64,000 nt of DNA from Enterococcus phage ZJGS3. The notes below the pieces were generated by a model. That model saw only the letters and a program-made list of their open reading frames with translations, was not told the origin of the DNA and did no database searches. Each line of letters begins with the position of its first letter. The stretch's first letter is position 1. Positions 33,473 to 38,960 of this stretch are shown here, piece by piece. The position numbers and the translations under genes are program-made. The DNA lies in sequence record PV523736.1, one strand, 5' to 3'.

Positions 33473-33925
33473 TTGTTGGAAGAGACGGTTTATAATTTTA
33501 TACAAGGCTTAAGCGGGACACAATTAACTATATTAGAAGATACATTTGCTTTACTAGGACTAATCTTTATACTTATAGGAATACATTTTTTAGTAGCAGA
33601 TACAGTTGAATGGGTGAAACTTGTTAGGAATCCAAGAGTATCTACATTTGCAACAATACACATGTATTTTACTTTTTATCTACCGATGTTCATTTTCTTT
33701 TTGGTAGATGGTAGTACGGTTACTACTTTTGTTGTTTCATTACTGCTTTTTGCTGTTGTATATACATGGATTGTATGGCTTCGAGTGGGTAGATACACAG
33801 AAAATTGGTCAGTAGTACGTCCGTTTGTTACCTACATTAAAGCACAAGACCATGTGTGTACGCTAGTTATTGGTTCAGTACTTTTAAGAACAGTACTATT
33901 TTTTATAAAACTTAGGATAGGTTAA
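33473..33925 (+). CDS. membrane protein
   Basis: Four hydrophobic helices; TTG start. Confidence 0.45.
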   Translation: MLEETVYNFIQGLSGTQLTILEDTFALLGLIFILIGIHFLVADTVEWVKLVRNPRVSTFATIHMYFTFYLPMFIFFLVDGSTVTTFVVSLLLFAVVYTWIVWLRVGRYTENWSVVRPFVTYIKAQDHVCTLVIGSVLLRTVLFFIKLRIG

Positions 33926-33966
33926 GATAGGATAGGATAGGATAGGATAGGATGGAGGATAAGATA
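33913..33966 (+). repeat. tandem pentamer array (GATAG/AGGAT x about 8) in the 5-prime UTR of ORF 33968
   Basis: aGGATAGGTTAAGATAGGATAGGATAGGATAGGATAGGATGGAGGATAAGATAT. Confidence 0.9.
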
Positions 33967-33967
33967 T

Positions 33968-34528
33968 ATGAATGAAATAATGAGTTATGTTTGGTTGGGT
34001 GTATTTATTGCTATACCCGTAATTGGCTTTATCTATGTATATAATTACAATAGAAAAAATCCACGTTGGTACCTTCGCAAAAGCTACTGGGCGCCACTAG
34101 TGCTAGATTTAGTTGTTTTTGGTGTTTGGGCAATGGTAGGCGTAATTACACTAGCTGTTGGACATACAGAAACTACTACTAAAACATTTAATATTGAACC
34201 ACTTACGGTTTATAATTCACCAGAAAATATTTATGCAAAGATAGGTAGCACGGATGACAGCTATGTTAACTTTGCAATTACAGGTAAAGGAACTCACTCT
34301 GCACCACTTGGTAACACTAGTATCCATTACGTTGAGTCCGAAGGTAGACCGAAAGTCACGGTTACTTACTACAAACTAGATCCCTCTTTCTCAGCCTTTA
34401 TGGGGATGCAGGGAGAACTTGTAACTAAAAAAACTCGTGTAGATATTCAAGTACCTGTAGGTGGGGTGGATGTCACAAATACAAGTAGTACCTTTGAAGA
34501 GCAATCAGTAAATGATTTACTTAGATAA
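33968..34528 (+). CDS. membrane-anchored protein
   Basis: Two N-terminal TM helices; preceded by a pentamer array and followed by iterons. Confidence 0.55.
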   Translation: MNEIMSYVWLGVFIAIPVIGFIYVYNYNRKNPRWYLRKSYWAPLVLDLVVFGVWAMVGVITLAVGHTETTTKTFNIEPLTVYNSPENIYAKIGSTDDSYVNFAITGKGTHSAPLGNTSIHYVESEGRPKVTVTYYKLDPSFSAFMGMQGELVTKKTRVDIQVPVGGVDVTNTSSTFEEQSVNDLLR

Positions 34529-34532
34529 TTCC

Positions 34533-34573
34533 CTAAGTAGCGGGTTACAAAAATCCGCTAAGTAGCAGGCTAG
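34533..34573 (+). repeat. two direct copies of the CTAAGTAGCRGGYTA iteron, 25-bp spacing
   Basis: CTAAGTAGCGGGTTAC and CTAAGTAGCAGGCTAG. Confidence 0.85.
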
Positions 34574-34601
34574 AGACATCTTTTATAGGTGTCTCTTTTT
34601 T
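34572..34601 (+). terminator. rho-independent terminator
   Basis: AGAGACA-TCTTTTATAGG-TGTCTCT plus T6. Confidence 0.75.
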
Positions 34602-34603
34602 AT

Positions 34604-34705
34604 TGACAAACCTGTACAGCTATGCTACTATATACATGTAAATAAAACAAGCTAAAAAAATTTGAGCTTACCTATTGACATTAAACAATGTACAGGCTAT
34701 AATAA
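34604..34705 (+). promoter_or_regulatory. two tandem consensus promoters (TTGACA 34604 and 34677)
   Basis: TTGACA-N16-TACTAT and TTGACA-N17-TATAAT. Confidence 0.6.
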
Positions 34706-34737
34706 GCTTGTAAGATAAAACGAAGGAGGAATTTACA

Positions 34738-34974
34738 ATGGAAAAACAAAAACAAGTGATTACAAGAAAACAGTACGAGGAGATTATGGCACGTTATAAC
34801 AAAATAGACTATGCTATCATCGCAGGGTTCGTTATCTTTGGCACAGTTATTTTTGGTTTTGGTGGATTTGTCTTTATGGCTATTGTTGGTGCGTTCACGT
34901 TCCCACGTATGAAACAAAAAAGCGTTAATTTAATGGAACAAGACTACATTGTTAGAGATGACATTCAACAGTAA
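34738..34974 (+). CDS. small membrane protein
   Basis: Consensus promoter and AGGAGG RBS; two TM helices. Confidence 0.55.
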   Translation: MEKQKQVITRKQYEEIMARYNKIDYAIIAGFVIFGTVIFGFGGFVFMAIVGAFTFPRMKQKSVNLMEQDYIVRDDIQQ

Positions 34975-36656: not shown

Positions 36657-37201
36657 TGGAAGTTAAAATAGACTTAACATCGGGTACAGCTACAGTTATT
36701 TTTAATGATAGTCCTACAGCAATAATAGAAAAATATCGTCATTCTATCTCATATGATGAAGTAAGTAATTACCGTAAAAGAGGGCATACAGTTTACTACG
36801 CTAACCCTGAGTATCGAGACCCCTACGTACTTAAAGATAAAGTTGTAGGTTCCAATTGGAAAGAATACATTGATAGCATGAATGAATTGCGGGAACAAAT
36901 TACTCTAGCAGAGAACATAGGTATTACAGTCACAAATAAGGAAAGCTATGAAAAAGTATACAAACGAGCTTTAAAACAGTATGCACAGTTACTAGAAAAA
37001 GGAAAGCAAGAAAATAAACACAGACGTTTAATTAAGTTACTCTCTTCTCAGGACTACGAAACTTTAGTAACTTTAATAGAAACAGCTTCTTGGCATCTGT
37101 TAGACCACTACGAGTACGAACATGCACCAATCCCACCGAAGGAGCAAGCTGTTATTGACATAAAAACTAAGTGGGATACAATAAGTAGAATAGAGGGATA
37201 A
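36656..37201 (+). CDS. hypothetical protein
   Basis: ATGA overlap. Confidence 0.5.
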   Translation: MEVKIDLTSGTATVIFNDSPTAIIEKYRHSISYDEVSNYRKRGHTVYYANPEYRDPYVLKDKVVGSNWKEYIDSMNELREQITLAENIGITVTNKESYEKVYKRALKQYAQLLEKGKQENKHRRLIKLLSSQDYETLVTLIETASWHLLDHYEYEHAPIPPKEQAVIDIKTKWDTISRIEG

Positions 37202-37230
37202 TATTTCCCTCTAAAATTTAAACATATCTA

Positions 37231-37260
37231 TTGACAATAAACAATAGAAGAGTTATACTA
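37231..37260 (+). promoter_or_regulatory. promoter TTGACA-N18-TATACT
   Basis: Hexamers. Confidence 0.55.
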
Positions 37261-37285
37261 TGTATGAAGATAAGGAAAGGGAGAG

Positions 37286-37618
37286 ATGAAAATGTTAAAC
37301 TTTAATAAACACGTAACAGCAGAAGATATTATCAGAGATGGAGAATACAATGATGCAGTTGTAGAACATATTATTGGAGAACTTGAAACAAGTGATAAGA
37401 AAAAATTAGCCCTATTCAAACAATGGATTGCAGACAAAAAAGAAGATGGAGACACAGAAGCTGTTGAATACTTTAAAGGTATGACAGATAAAGAAATTTT
37501 GGTTTACATGGACTTAGACGAAATTGTAGAATACTATGAAGAAACAGGTCTTGCAGACTTTGCAGATAGTTTAGATATTGACTGGACAGGTTTACTAGAA
37601 AGCTTTGGAGTAGAATAG
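37286..37618 (+). CDS. hypothetical acidic protein
   Basis: Own promoter and RBS. Confidence 0.5.
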   Translation: MKMLNFNKHVTAEDIIRDGEYNDAVVEHIIGELETSDKKKLALFKQWIADKKEDGDTEAVEYFKGMTDKEILVYMDLDEIVEYYEETGLADFADSLDIDWTGLLESFGVE

Positions 37619-37629
37619 GAGAAACTAAT

Positions 37630-38274
37630 TTGAACACAGAAAACAGAGTAAGAAGAGGGAGACCTCGTAAATATCCAGAGGGAGCTAAACGGGTAGGCAA
37701 TACAAGTCTGATAGTCACAAAGAAACAAAAAGAATACATTGGTAATATCGCAAAGTTAAACAAGGAAACAGTAAAAGAGACAAGTAACAGGCTACTAAAA
37801 GAAGTTTTAGATGGCAAGTTTGATTACTTGTTAACACCTATTGTAGAAGAAGATGTACCATCTGTGCCAGTAACAGTAGATAGGAAGTTGACACATGAGG
37901 TACAGAAGTATTTAGAGGGTTACAACGAGAATGCTTCGGAAGTAATACGGAAAATAGTGGAGGAGTTTATGATTATGACAGACAGAACACTGAAAGTAGT
38001 TGGGGGTTACGAACTGGGGGTAACTTCCATTACAAAAGAGCTTAAACGATTTTGGTTGAAACCTACAGAGGAAGCAGAAGAAAATATGTTCTTTATGGAT
38101 GCCTCCATTCAACTAGATGTGGATAACCGACATGTAGTCATTCGTGAAAAATCTATGGGTGTCCGCTCAATCAGTCAAATGGAAGAGCTTAAACGCTACA
38201 AAGACCAACTGATAGAGACAGCTTCACAATTACAGGATGCACTGGATACTTACGTTGCGAAACATTTAGGATAA
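37630..38274 (+). CDS. hypothetical protein with N-terminal RGRPRK AT-hook-like motif
   Basis: TTG start after GGAGAAA. Confidence 0.45.
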   Translation: MNTENRVRRGRPRKYPEGAKRVGNTSLIVTKKQKEYIGNIAKLNKETVKETSNRLLKEVLDGKFDYLLTPIVEEDVPSVPVTVDRKLTHEVQKYLEGYNENASEVIRKIVEEFMIMTDRTLKVVGGYELGVTSITKELKRFWLKPTEEAEENMFFMDASIQLDVDNRHVVIREKSMGVRSISQMEELKRYKDQLIETASQLQDALDTYVAKHLG

Positions 38275-38376
38275 ACTTTTAGGATATAGGATAGGATAAA
38301 CAGGATAGGATGCGTTTAGGATAAGATAGGATAGGATTCACTTAGGATAGGATAGGATGAAAGGAGACAGGATATA
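38266..38376 (+). repeat. clustered AGGAT pentamers (about 14 copies in groups of 2-3) in the 5-prime UTR of ORF 38377
   Basis: TTAGGATATAGGATAGGATAAACAGGATAGGATGCG...AGGATAGGATAGGATGAAAGGAGACAGGATATAATG. Confidence 0.9.
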
Positions 38377-38826
38377 ATGTTAAGTACAGCAGAATATGAT
38401 TCACTTAGAGAGTATTTAGTAGCCGTAATTCATAACCAAATTAGTGAGGATGAGAGAGACACACAAAGCCTAGACGTATGGAAGGAAGAGGTTGACAAGC
38501 TGACAGTAGACAATTGGAGAGAACGTTGCATAAACCTAGCAGATTTGTTATATGTAGATACTCCCGCTTCACTGGCAGACATTTACAAAGATTATAAAGA
38601 GGAGCTAAACGAAATACTCAGAGATTACACAGATGAGCTACGTGCAGGAGCTACGTTCAATAAGGTAGCTGACGAGCGCCTAGGGTGGATGTGGGAAGAC
38701 TATGACCCATTAATACTAGAAGCACATAATCAAGGTCTAGTGGTTCGTTTAGGGCTTCTAATCGTTGCTGAACAACTTGCTACTCAATTAGAACAAGGGA
38801 CGTTTACAATACCATATGATAACTAA
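38377..38826 (+). CDS. hypothetical acidic protein
   Basis: Preceded by an AGGAT array, followed by a terminator and iterons. Confidence 0.55.
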   Translation: MLSTAEYDSLREYLVAVIHNQISEDERDTQSLDVWKEEVDKLTVDNWRERCINLADLLYVDTPASLADIYKDYKEELNEILRDYTDELRAGATFNKVADERLGWMWEDYDPLILEAHNQGLVVRLGLLIVAEQLATQLEQGTFTIPYDN

Positions 38827-38960
38827 GTAACAGGCTAGCCTAAGTAGCAGGCTAGCTTTTTTCTTCTAAGTAGCAGGTTAGCTAAAATCTTCTAAGTAAC
38901 GGGCTACAGTAAAAATCCTCTAAGTAGCAGGCTACAAAAATCCTCTAAGTAGCGGGCTAC
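38823..38960 (+). repeat. six direct copies of the CTAAGTARCRGGYTA iteron at about 25-26-bp spacing
   Basis: Copies start near 38823, 38840, 38866, 38892, 38919 and 38944. Confidence 0.9.
38834..38862 (+). terminator. rho-independent terminator formed by two iteron copies
   Basis: GCTAGCCT-AAGTAGC-AGGCTAGC plus T6. Confidence 0.7.

Follow-up and report, generated by a model that had tools for sequence, protein, structure and literature searches.

Paired tandem-repeat arrays at the early-module border of Enterococcus phage ZJGS3 and their conservation across Herelleviridae subfamilies

Introduction

What keeps the same two non-coding repeats around two different genes in a fast-diverging region of a phage genome? 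The question is raised by a 64,000-nt stretch of Enterococcus phage ZJGS3 (sequence record PV523736.1; the whole stretch is called the window below), in which a tandem array of the pentamer TAGGA leads into each of two cassette genes, and direct repeats with the core CTAAGTAGC (iterons) begin at or just behind the stop codon of each. An earlier note had described these cassettes and had offered several roles for them, namely ribosome loading, protein binding at an origin or partition site, and marking of the terminal repeats.

The comparisons made in the current study show that the paired architecture is shared across subfamilies of the Herelleviridae, and this is the main new result. (TAGGA)n repeats have been noted once before, in Listeria phage CKA15, in a paper whose accessible sections give the pentamers and an A+T-rich stretch and neither mention CTAAGTAGC repeats nor treat the two motifs as a pair or as conserved in other genera (PMC12282133). 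A hypervariable direct repeat at the terminal-repeat border of Kayvirus was also already described (2019, PMC6445280). No report of the iteron sequence or of the paired architecture was found in a literature coverage that was incomplete and did not include the A511 genome paper.

As a tentative reading, which falls somewhat short of being probable, it is proposed that the repeats are polar protein-binding DNA sites that seal or regulate the border of the early module and also serve as recombination joints.

Results and Discussion

Two cassettes with one repeat architecture

Both pentamer arrays extend to the ribosome-binding site, as the earlier note had claimed. With period 5, Tandem Repeats Finder counted 10.4 copies in array 1 (33913-33966) and 14.4 in array 2, where it delimited 38286-38358 and a 26-nt super-period. 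The 10-mer GGATAGGATA, searched in the window with at most one mismatch, gave 15 matches against 3.15 expected, and 14 of the 15 were inside the two arrays. Exact TAGGA units numbered six in array 1 and 11 in array 2. Array 1 starts within the stop-codon region of the upstream open reading frame (ORF; ...AGG ATA GGT TAA, with the TAA at 33923-33925), and array 2 likewise holds the stop of its upstream ORF (...TTA GGA TAA, with the TAA at 38272-38274).

The iteron CTAAGTARCRGGYTA was found in eight exact copies, all on the plus strand (34533, 34558, 38823, 38840, 38866, 38892, 38920 and 38945), which bears out the two plus six direct repeats counted before. With up to two mismatches, 11 matches were obtained in the window against 0.87 expected, and none of 100 shuffled sequences had as many. 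The spacing was 25 bp in array 1 and 17, 26, 26, 28 and 25 bp in array 2. Neither motif occurred elsewhere in the window, nor elsewhere in the complete 149,913-bp genome of the related phage GVEsP-1. The statement of the earlier note that the first two iterons at 38.8 kb are inverted was mistaken, since both are direct and on the plus strand. The hairpin of terminator 2 arises instead from the junction between them, the palindrome AGGCTAGCCT, whose pairing partner is the 3' half of iteron 2.

Cassette 1 thus reads: stop codon within the pentamers, Shine-Dalgarno sequence (SD), ORF186, two iterons, terminator, and promoters at 34603 and 34675. Cassette 2 reads: stop codon within the pentamers, SD, ORF149, iterons 1 and 2 as terminator, and four further iterons (3-6) behind it, followed by a G+C-rich spacer, a T-rich box and promoters at 39101 and 39188 (Table 1). 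Terminator-like sites were frequent in the region (8 against 2.3 expected).

Conservation of the motif pair

The closest match to the 5.9-kb region was GVEsP-1 (Schiekvirus; Herelleviridae, Brockvirinae), with 98.4% identity over the full length, and 33 Enterococcus phage genomes matched the region. The window itself is accordingly Schiekvirus DNA. The ordered pair, (TAGGA)n followed by none to two genes and then by CTAAGTAGC repeats, was also kept in Kochikohdavirus, Listeria Pecentumvirus and Staphylococcus Kayvirus. Pentamers, ORF111, a terminator and four iterons follow each other in phiEF24C (Kochikohdavirus). The Listeria phages P100 and A511 have 16 and 14 perfect GGATA units, respectively, which start in the last codons of a 96-aa gene. 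An intrinsic terminator (GATAGGA...TCCTATC and a T-run) takes its 5' arm from the last of these units. Six CTAAGTAGC-core repeats then extend over about 550 bp up to the first early promoters, and no gene lies between the arrays. Kayvirus MSA6 carries the pair inside its long terminal repeat, with pentamers ahead of treG and treH and four CTAAGTAGCTC repeats running from the treH stop codon. Twelve copies were found in a Staphylococcus Alsa-like phage, in four intergenic clusters, in two of which the last copy lies between the -35 and -10 elements of a promoter. Bacillus phage Hoody T had a diverged version, TAGTAGCTCCCT, after stop codons, where it forms a terminator arm; in the terminal redundancy of SPO1 neither motif formed an array.

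When the iteron array was used as a BLAST query, a check asked for in the earlier note, 123 records were returned (68 Enterococcus phages, 54 Listeria phages and 1 other phage). When IMG/VR was scanned with the exact iteron and (TAGGA)4, the loci returned included one with both motifs, that of Listeria phage P100. (TAGGA)4 was present at 38 IMG/VR loci, of which the Herelleviridae ones were examined, and several of the others had giant-virus (GVMAG) contig names. Paired CTAAGTAGC 9-mers were discarded as evidence; they occurred at 49 IMG/VR loci, about chance level by a rough estimate that was not computed, and the inspected loci outside Herelleviridae looked like unrelated repeats (one of them, L085, is a giant-virus locus).

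The 9-nt core CTAAGTAGC was near-invariant in the array copies collected, 67 of them from Schiekvirus, 34 from Kochikohdavirus, 12 from Pecentumvirus and 12 from the Alsa-like phage. Kayvirus added seven, three of them being CTAAGTACC repeats at the terminal-repeat border. Core positions 1-7 (CTAAGTA) were essentially invariant in every group, and G8 was replaced by A in about 20% of the Schiekvirus copies. The second half of the iteron, AGGCTA, was specific to Enterococcus and Listeria phages. All array copies lie on the sense strand of the flanking genes, with none opposite in any lineage.

The enclosed protein had 24% amino acid identity between the two Enterococcus phage genera (ORF149 and ORF111), and apart from this pair no homology of cassette or flanking genes was found across genera. 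Because the core is near-invariant while the enclosed protein has diverged so far and the flanking genes are unrelated, the non-coding motifs are under stronger constraint than the genes, and on these sequence comparisons the motifs are judged to be under selection.

Copy-number change and cassette exchange

Iterons in the main array numbered four (phiEF24C, EFLK1), five, six (this window, EA1, iF6, EFP01) or seven (GVEsP-1), with 2 + 15 perfect 24-bp iterons in phage 156 and at least six perfect 25-bp iterons in KEN11. The 15-copy array of phage 156 (locus L056, 20009-20415) has a 'hypothetical protein' annotated straight through it. Pentamers ranged from one to about 60 units, from a single unit in cassette 1 of iF6, through the 14 and 16 of A511 and P100, to the arrays of CKA15, given by its authors as (TAGGA)27 and (TAGGA)33 (PMC12282133). 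The entire array-plus-terminator unit is duplicated in CKA15.

The homology of phage 156 (Kochikohdavirus) to the window was confined to 33916-35219 and 38280-38963, from the start of the pentamer array to the last iteron. The cassettes therefore act as units, with their ORFs where the earlier note had placed them. The 214-aa gene upstream of array 2 was replaced by other genes in iF6 and two metagenomic relatives (L030, L043), and homology resumed at 38267-38280. The breakpoints 33916, 38267-38280 and 38963 thus come from four independent comparisons, and since they fall exactly on the arrays, the arrays are recurrent mosaic joints. No other DNA in this fast-diverging region is strongly conserved, and the motifs may therefore also serve as homology arms. 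Exchange of cassettes at the arrays would explain the duplication seen here and the empty cassette of the Listeria phages.

Comparable mobile units are the promoter-early stem-loop (PeSL) cassettes of T4-type phages, reportedly described by Arbiol et al. in 2010. As in those, short conserved regulatory flanks surround small early genes in a plastic region, and the flanks coincide with boundaries of exchange. A PeSL consists of a promoter and a stem-loop, whereas here the flanks are two tandem-repeat arrays (5-nt and about 25-nt units) with fixed 5' and 3' roles. They are conserved across subfamilies with different host genera, and the promoters, which follow the iterons, are not part of the cassette.

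The instability of copy number would suit another explanation, in which the repeats are an essentially neutral or selfish micro- and minisatellite, kept as seeds of terminators and stop codons and regenerated by recombination with no dedicated factor. The ranges of copy number (pentamers 1 to about 60; iterons 4, 6, 7, 17, or at least six perfect copies) are consistent with this, as are the expanded arrays of perfect copies, which recent slippage would give, the richness of both motifs in stop codons, the use of their pieces as terminator arms and the near loss of array 1 in iF6, where the gene was retained. A purely neutral origin does not fit easily with sequence, order and strand being conserved across subfamilies: the 9-15-nt core is identical, in the same order and on the same strand, over three subfamilies and three host genera while the enclosed protein stands at 24%, and the degenerate, interrupted arrays of Enterococcus phages are still held at the same position. 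The neutral explanation is accordingly regarded as improbable.

Less probable still, the arrays could be dosage-dependent decoys, for a silencing or defence factor of host Bacilli or for the ribosome (anti-SD), or strand-polar translocation signals at the inner edge of the early region. A decoy would explain both the identical core over three host genera and the recent amplification (15-17 perfect iterons, about 60 pentamers). Phage PhiTE amplifies pseudo-ToxI repeats, which offers a parallel for a decoy, and the injection-stop region of T5 offers one for a genome-entry signal. Type III toxin-antitoxin systems combine a ToxI RNA, transcribed from tandem repeats of about 34-45 nt, with a ToxN-like endoribonuclease. 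A ToxI-like antitoxin or pseudo-ToxI decoy was rejected for the present arrays, as the unit is 24-26 nt, most copies follow a terminator, and neither PADLOC nor Rfam gave a match.

Position of the arrays relative to the terminal repeats

The suggestion that the cassettes mark terminal-repeat boundaries did not hold. The 2108-bp direct terminal repeats of iF6, a phage of the same genus, were mapped by restriction analysis and RAGE and are annotated in its record (PMC10054541). They align to 44182-46255 of the window (about 2.07 kb), 5.2 kb downstream of iteron array 2. PhageTerm gave a 2105-bp repeat at the equivalent distance in phage 163, in agreement with iF6, and the A511 arrays precede the annotated 3125-bp terminal repeat of that phage by 7.4 kb. 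The predicted borders at 44182 and 46255 are in G+C-rich non-coding DNA, the first approximately 480 bp (44182-44660) being non-coding with promoters.

That the arrays are a terminal-repeat boundary or packaging signals is consequently considered very improbable, as the mapped repeats of Schiekvirus and A511 lie so far downstream and no iteron-like CTAAGTAGC motif was present at either predicted border. Two observations had spoken for it. Several public records begin at the arrays, and in Kayvirus a variable tandem repeat with CTAAGTACC, one mismatch from the core, adjoins the left border of the long terminal repeat.

The records starting at an array were rejected as physical ends. The start of KEN11 is an assembly break, because an identical 127-nt overlap is found at both ends inside a perfect tandem repeat, and Sw5 was cut at a stop codon. 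The KEN11 assembly (L105, L106) is broken inside its iteron array.

The Kayvirus border repeat resembles the present arrays in being hypervariable, in lying immediately ahead of the early (terminal-repeat) module and in containing CTAAGTACC. It differs in adjoining the terminal repeat itself, in lacking the second half of the iteron and in being entirely missing in phage 812h1. The true motif pair of Kayvirus is the one inside the terminal repeat, around treG and treH, and not at the border. Directly before the right long terminal repeat of MSA6 (locus L057, 17397-17694), TACTACTATTAC is repeated approximately 20 times and TACTAAGTACCTTTGTTATGTAC, which contains CTAAGTACC, 2.5 times. MSA6 also has ATAAGTAGCTACTTAT, a double site that is palindromic and precedes the first terminal-repeat promoter by about 60 bp (18044-18059).

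The early-module border and its transcription

Genes in the window run rightward to about 46.2 kb and leftward beyond, with the replication and accessory genes forming a block upstream of the cassettes. About 13 near-identical strong sigma-A early promoters of the form TTGACAtTAAACAAT...TATAAT were found between 34.6 and 45.8 kb, the early host-takeover module typical of the family. Upstream of 34603 a single early-type promoter match was detected, at 30683 and with one mismatch, against about 13 downstream as far as 45842. The earlier placing of the cassettes at the transition into the early-promoter module agrees with this map, in which the early promoters begin at 34.6 kb.

The promoter family at 34675-45842 can be written TTGACA(T/A)TAAACAAT-N-TATAAT; each member is ahead of a small gene, often with a terminator before it. 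This repeated promoter(-terminator) unit could itself drive gene shuffling.

The homologous locus of CKA15 is likewise non-coding and placed before the early module, with pentamers that run from the stop codon of the upstream gene. The Enterococcus phage differs in having a gene between the arrays and in the duplication of the locus. RNA sequencing of CKA15 revealed a 1.2-kb 'relative transcriptional dead zone' directly downstream of the pentamer-ended gene CKA15_188, and the authors suggested a possible origin in an A+T-rich stretch at the far end of this zone (PMC12282133). Inspection of the CKA15 record placed the six iterons within the silent zone.

Comparison with replication origins

These observations make the protein-binding or origin-like role raised in the earlier note plausible, the homologous region of CKA15 being silent and tentatively linked to an origin by the authors of that study. 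An iteron-type origin has at least three direct repeats with a conserved core in non-coding DNA, and six and two such copies are present here. The main rival to the proposal made above is that the CTAAGTAGC repeats bind a phage initiator and that the A+T-rich stretch about 90-250 bp downstream unwinds. The 4-17 direct repeats in non-coding DNA and the 185 bp downstream of them, in which A+T content reaches its maximum for the window, fit such an origin, as do the uniqueness of the element in the genome and the untranscribed state of the Listeria region, for which its authors suggested an origin.

The A+T-rich stretch (39131-39315, 18.9% G+C) coincides with an early promoter cluster that has UP-like elements, and support from it is generic for that reason. 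It ranks fourth lowest in G+C genome-wide in GVEsP-1, and its A+T content is equalled or exceeded in other early promoter regions and at three further sites of the genome. The lowest-G+C spot of GVEsP-1 is elsewhere, at 142.4 kb beside tRNA genes. No initiator gene is adjacent, no Rep-like family matches were obtained among the neighbouring ORFs, and DnaA boxes in the window were neither enriched nor clustered (17 against 19.6 expected). The Kayvirus motif pair lies within a strongly transcribed early operon, while the proposed origin of that genus is an untranscribed region of lowest G+C near tRNA genes, and copies inside promoter spacers do not fit an origin. Taken together, an origin at the arrays is considered unlikely, although it is the alternative to be taken most seriously. 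A partition site also found no support in the gene content, there being no ParA/ParM/TubZ-type or adaptor genes among the flanking ORFs and no par genes in the full GVEsP-1 annotation.

A lone perfect DnaA box, TTATCCACA, lies on the minus strand at 38118-38126, within the 214-aa ORF and some 140 bp before pentamer array 2. The lowest-G+C stretch of GVEsP-1 (142,481-142,665; 15% over 185 bp) is beside the tRNA cluster and outside the window; matching the proposed origin of phage K in position, it is a better a priori origin candidate than the iteron region.

Iteron origins and operator arrays such as lambda ori, plasmid iterons and the heptad arrays of the omega protein share with the present repeats a head-to-tail arrangement, a conserved core, variable spacers and a non-coding position beside an A+T-rich region and promoters. 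The phage arrays differ in having no adjacent gene for a cognate initiator or regulator, in an irregular spacing of 17-34 bp and a copy number of 2-17, and in the overlap of the repeats with a terminator and their start at a stop codon.

Possible roles in the transcript

Pentamers always lead into an SD and ATG in Enterococcus and Staphylococcus phages. Read as RNA, array 1 has seven UAG triplets together with UAA, UGG and GAU variants over 11 consecutive 5-nt registers up to the AUG. The (UAGGA)n array might thus be a leader that binds a protein or the ribosome and tunes translation of the cassette, with the CUAAGUAGC repeats as sites in the 3' untranslated region for an RNA-binding or termination factor. 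Triplets with 2-nt spacers, the tandem weak SD cores, the sense-strand orientation of all copies, and iterons that begin at stop codons and form terminator stems would suit this explanation. The TRAP sites of Bacillus consist of 9-11 (G/U)AG triplets with 2-3-nt spacers and overlap the SD at trpG. Array 1 is like them, its UAG-GA units continuing in one register over 11 positions to the AUG and covering the SD.

The differences are that no phage homologue of TRAP (MtrB) was found (phmmer, best E = 0.63) and that the Listeria arrays have no downstream gene. To our knowledge, the Enterococcus hosts have no mtrB. A search of the six-frame ORFs of GVEsP-1 and of the partial loci of relatives for TRAP, CsrA, Hfq and HutP gave no homologue (best E = 0.3), and Rfam gave nothing above noise in the window region or at the P100 and phiEF24C loci. 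Listeria phages keep the array and expand it, up to 27 + 33 units, with no gene behind it, and the ribosome-loading or sponge role once suggested for the SD-like pentamers is weakened by these arrays of 14-60 units that lead to a terminator. The retention of the iF6 gene behind a single TAGGA unit indicates that pentamer copy number is not critical for expression. Most iterons follow a terminator, in a region that was transcript-free in CKA15. Pairing of the pentamer and iteron RNAs (ACUUAGGA with UCCUAAGU) was rejected, as duplex energies equalled those of shuffled controls in four of five phages, and Kayvirus alone departed from them (z = -2.7). An action at the RNA level is on this evidence a rather doubtful explanation.

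Proposed function

Action at the DNA level is favoured because the silent zone of CKA15 holds the iterons, most iterons follow a terminator (all or most copies in phiEF24C and the Listeria phages), and some copies sit in promoter spacers. The two cassettes are seen as local copies of a non-coding junction system common to several Herelleviridae subfamilies and placed between the end of the rightward replication/accessory block and the start of the strong sigma-A early promoters. On the 5' side, a slippage-prone (TAGGA)n array supplies the stop codon of the upstream gene and runs into the SD of the cassette gene. On the 3' side, polar repeats with the invariant CTAAGTAGC core start from the cassette stop codon, interwoven with an intrinsic terminator or before it.

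Acting as DNA, the CTAAGTAGC repeats may form a head-to-tail array for a putative conserved sequence-specific protein, of the phage core or of the host. The bound protein might be a back-up roadblock behind the terminator, or the array might be an operator for the early promoters directly downstream. A secondary role, with recombination as a by-product, would be to provide homology arms for exchange, duplication or emptying of cassettes and for expansion and contraction of the arrays. The pentamers, the weakest part of the proposal, could act as a translational leader or as a further binding site, used either by the same factor or by a different one.

One candidate for the binding protein is encoded two genes upstream of the arrays. 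The C-terminal 130 aa of this very acidic 768-aa protein (31108-33414; four genes upstream in the Listeria phages) comprise two helix-turn-helix-like segments (phrog_1303, 'DNA binding protein'), and it is this part that recurs in 538 Herelleviridae records, which come from phages of Staphylococcus, Bacillus, Listeria and Enterococcus. A relative with a solved structure was not found for it.

Several points weigh against the proposal. No binding protein was identified among the neighbouring DNA-binding candidates, of which the ORFs of 214 and 82 aa are genus-specific and the double helix-turn-helix protein (phrog_1303) occurs in phages in which the exact motif was not found. Iterons placed 17-34 bp apart, or 24 bp apart in the expanded arrays, are not in phase with the helix, and a copy number of 2 to 17 is looser than that of most operators. 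The downstream early promoters already have the sigma-A consensus and need no activator. Strict conservation of a 9-mer over three host genera would be unusual, as a phage protein and its site normally co-evolve. The iterons of Kayvirus and of cassette 1 precede the terminator and are therefore transcribed, which leaves room for a role in RNA. Finally, the proposal says little that is specific about the pentamers.

Cassette genes and neighbouring features

Coordinates of the features are collected in Table 1. PADLOC gave no defence or toxin-antitoxin match for the cassette and flanking ORFs.

Table 1. Repeats, genes and predicted signals around the two cassettes (window coordinates).
Feature	Position	Strand	Description
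Multi-pass membrane ORF, 150 aa, phrog_30751	33473-33925	+	Last codons and TAA inside pentamer array 1
Pentamer array 1	33913-33966	+	About 10 TAGGA or close-variant units in one 5-nt register, through the SD GGAGG (33953-33957) to the ATG at 33968
Cassette-1 gene, 186 aa, N-terminal membrane anchor, phrog_33649	33968-34528	+	Enclosed by pentamer array 1 and iteron array 1
Iteron array 1	34533-34572	+	Two direct CTAAGTAGC-core repeats 25 bp apart; begins 5 nt past the stop codon
Intrinsic terminator 1	34572-34604	+	10-bp stem (34572-34596) and T-run, directly after iteron array 1
Sigma-A-type promoters after terminator 1	34603-34631, 34675-34703	+	Promoter prediction by sequence
214-aa ORF	37630-38274	+	Ribbon-helix-helix in the EA1 record; TAA after the first TAGGA of array 2
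Pentamer array 2	38260-38376	+	11 exact TAGGA units plus degenerate ones, 26-nt super-period; continues as far as the SD AAAGGAG and the start codon (ATG, 38377)
Cassette-2 gene, 149 aa, acidic, phrog_17103	38377-38826	+	24% identity to the positional homologue ORF111 of phiEF24C
Iteron array 2	38823-38959	+	Six direct CTAAGTARCRGGYTA repeats; iteron 1 provides the stop codon (TAA) of the 149-aa ORF
Intrinsic terminator 2	38832-38866	+	Stem 38832-38858 (3' half of iteron 1, palindromic junction, iteron 2), then TTTTTTCTT
G+C-rich spacer after last iteron	38960-39045	.	50-54% G+C against a genome average of 37%; sequence unlike in every genus
T-rich, roughly palindromic conserved box TTTTTTCCTTATATATAGAAGAAAAAAG	39046-39073	+	Common to phiEF24C, phage 156 and Bacillus phage Hoody T
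First two strong early sigma-A promoters, host-takeover module	39101-39129, 39188-39216	+	Within the 185 bp of highest A+T content in the window

A spacer of like size and composition, with unrelated sequence, is found at the same place in phiEF24C, the Listeria phages and the Staphylococcus Alsa-like phage. The box TTTTTTCCTTATATATAGAAGAAAAAAG, which sits between the iterons and the first early promoter, has a looser match in A511 and resembles the Pecentumvirus middle/late promoter motif TGYTATAWTA.

An iteron-like site, GTAAGTAGTAGGCTA, occurs at 36177-36191 inside a 248-aa SprT-like ORF; the version in EA1 and GVEsP-1, GTAAGTAGCAGGCTA, is one mismatch from the consensus. A similar internal site was seen within ORF111 of phiEF24C (locus L055, 6658).

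Conclusions

The phages chiefly used in therapy and biocontrol against Staphylococcus (K), Listeria (P100, A511) and Enterococcus (EFDG1-like and phiEF24C-like phages) belong to the Herelleviridae. The placing of the terminal repeats away from the arrays removes a tempting error, namely to take the repeats for genome termini. Being hypervariable, the arrays offer strain markers and are a possible source of batch heterogeneity, and they cause short-read assemblies to break and give rise to spurious ORFs in public records. As natural joints for the swapping of early genes, they are also candidate safe sites for engineered payloads. Since the non-coding motifs are better conserved than the genes they flank, the results point to a previously undescribed cis-acting control point at the head of the host-takeover region, which would have a conserved partner acting in trans.

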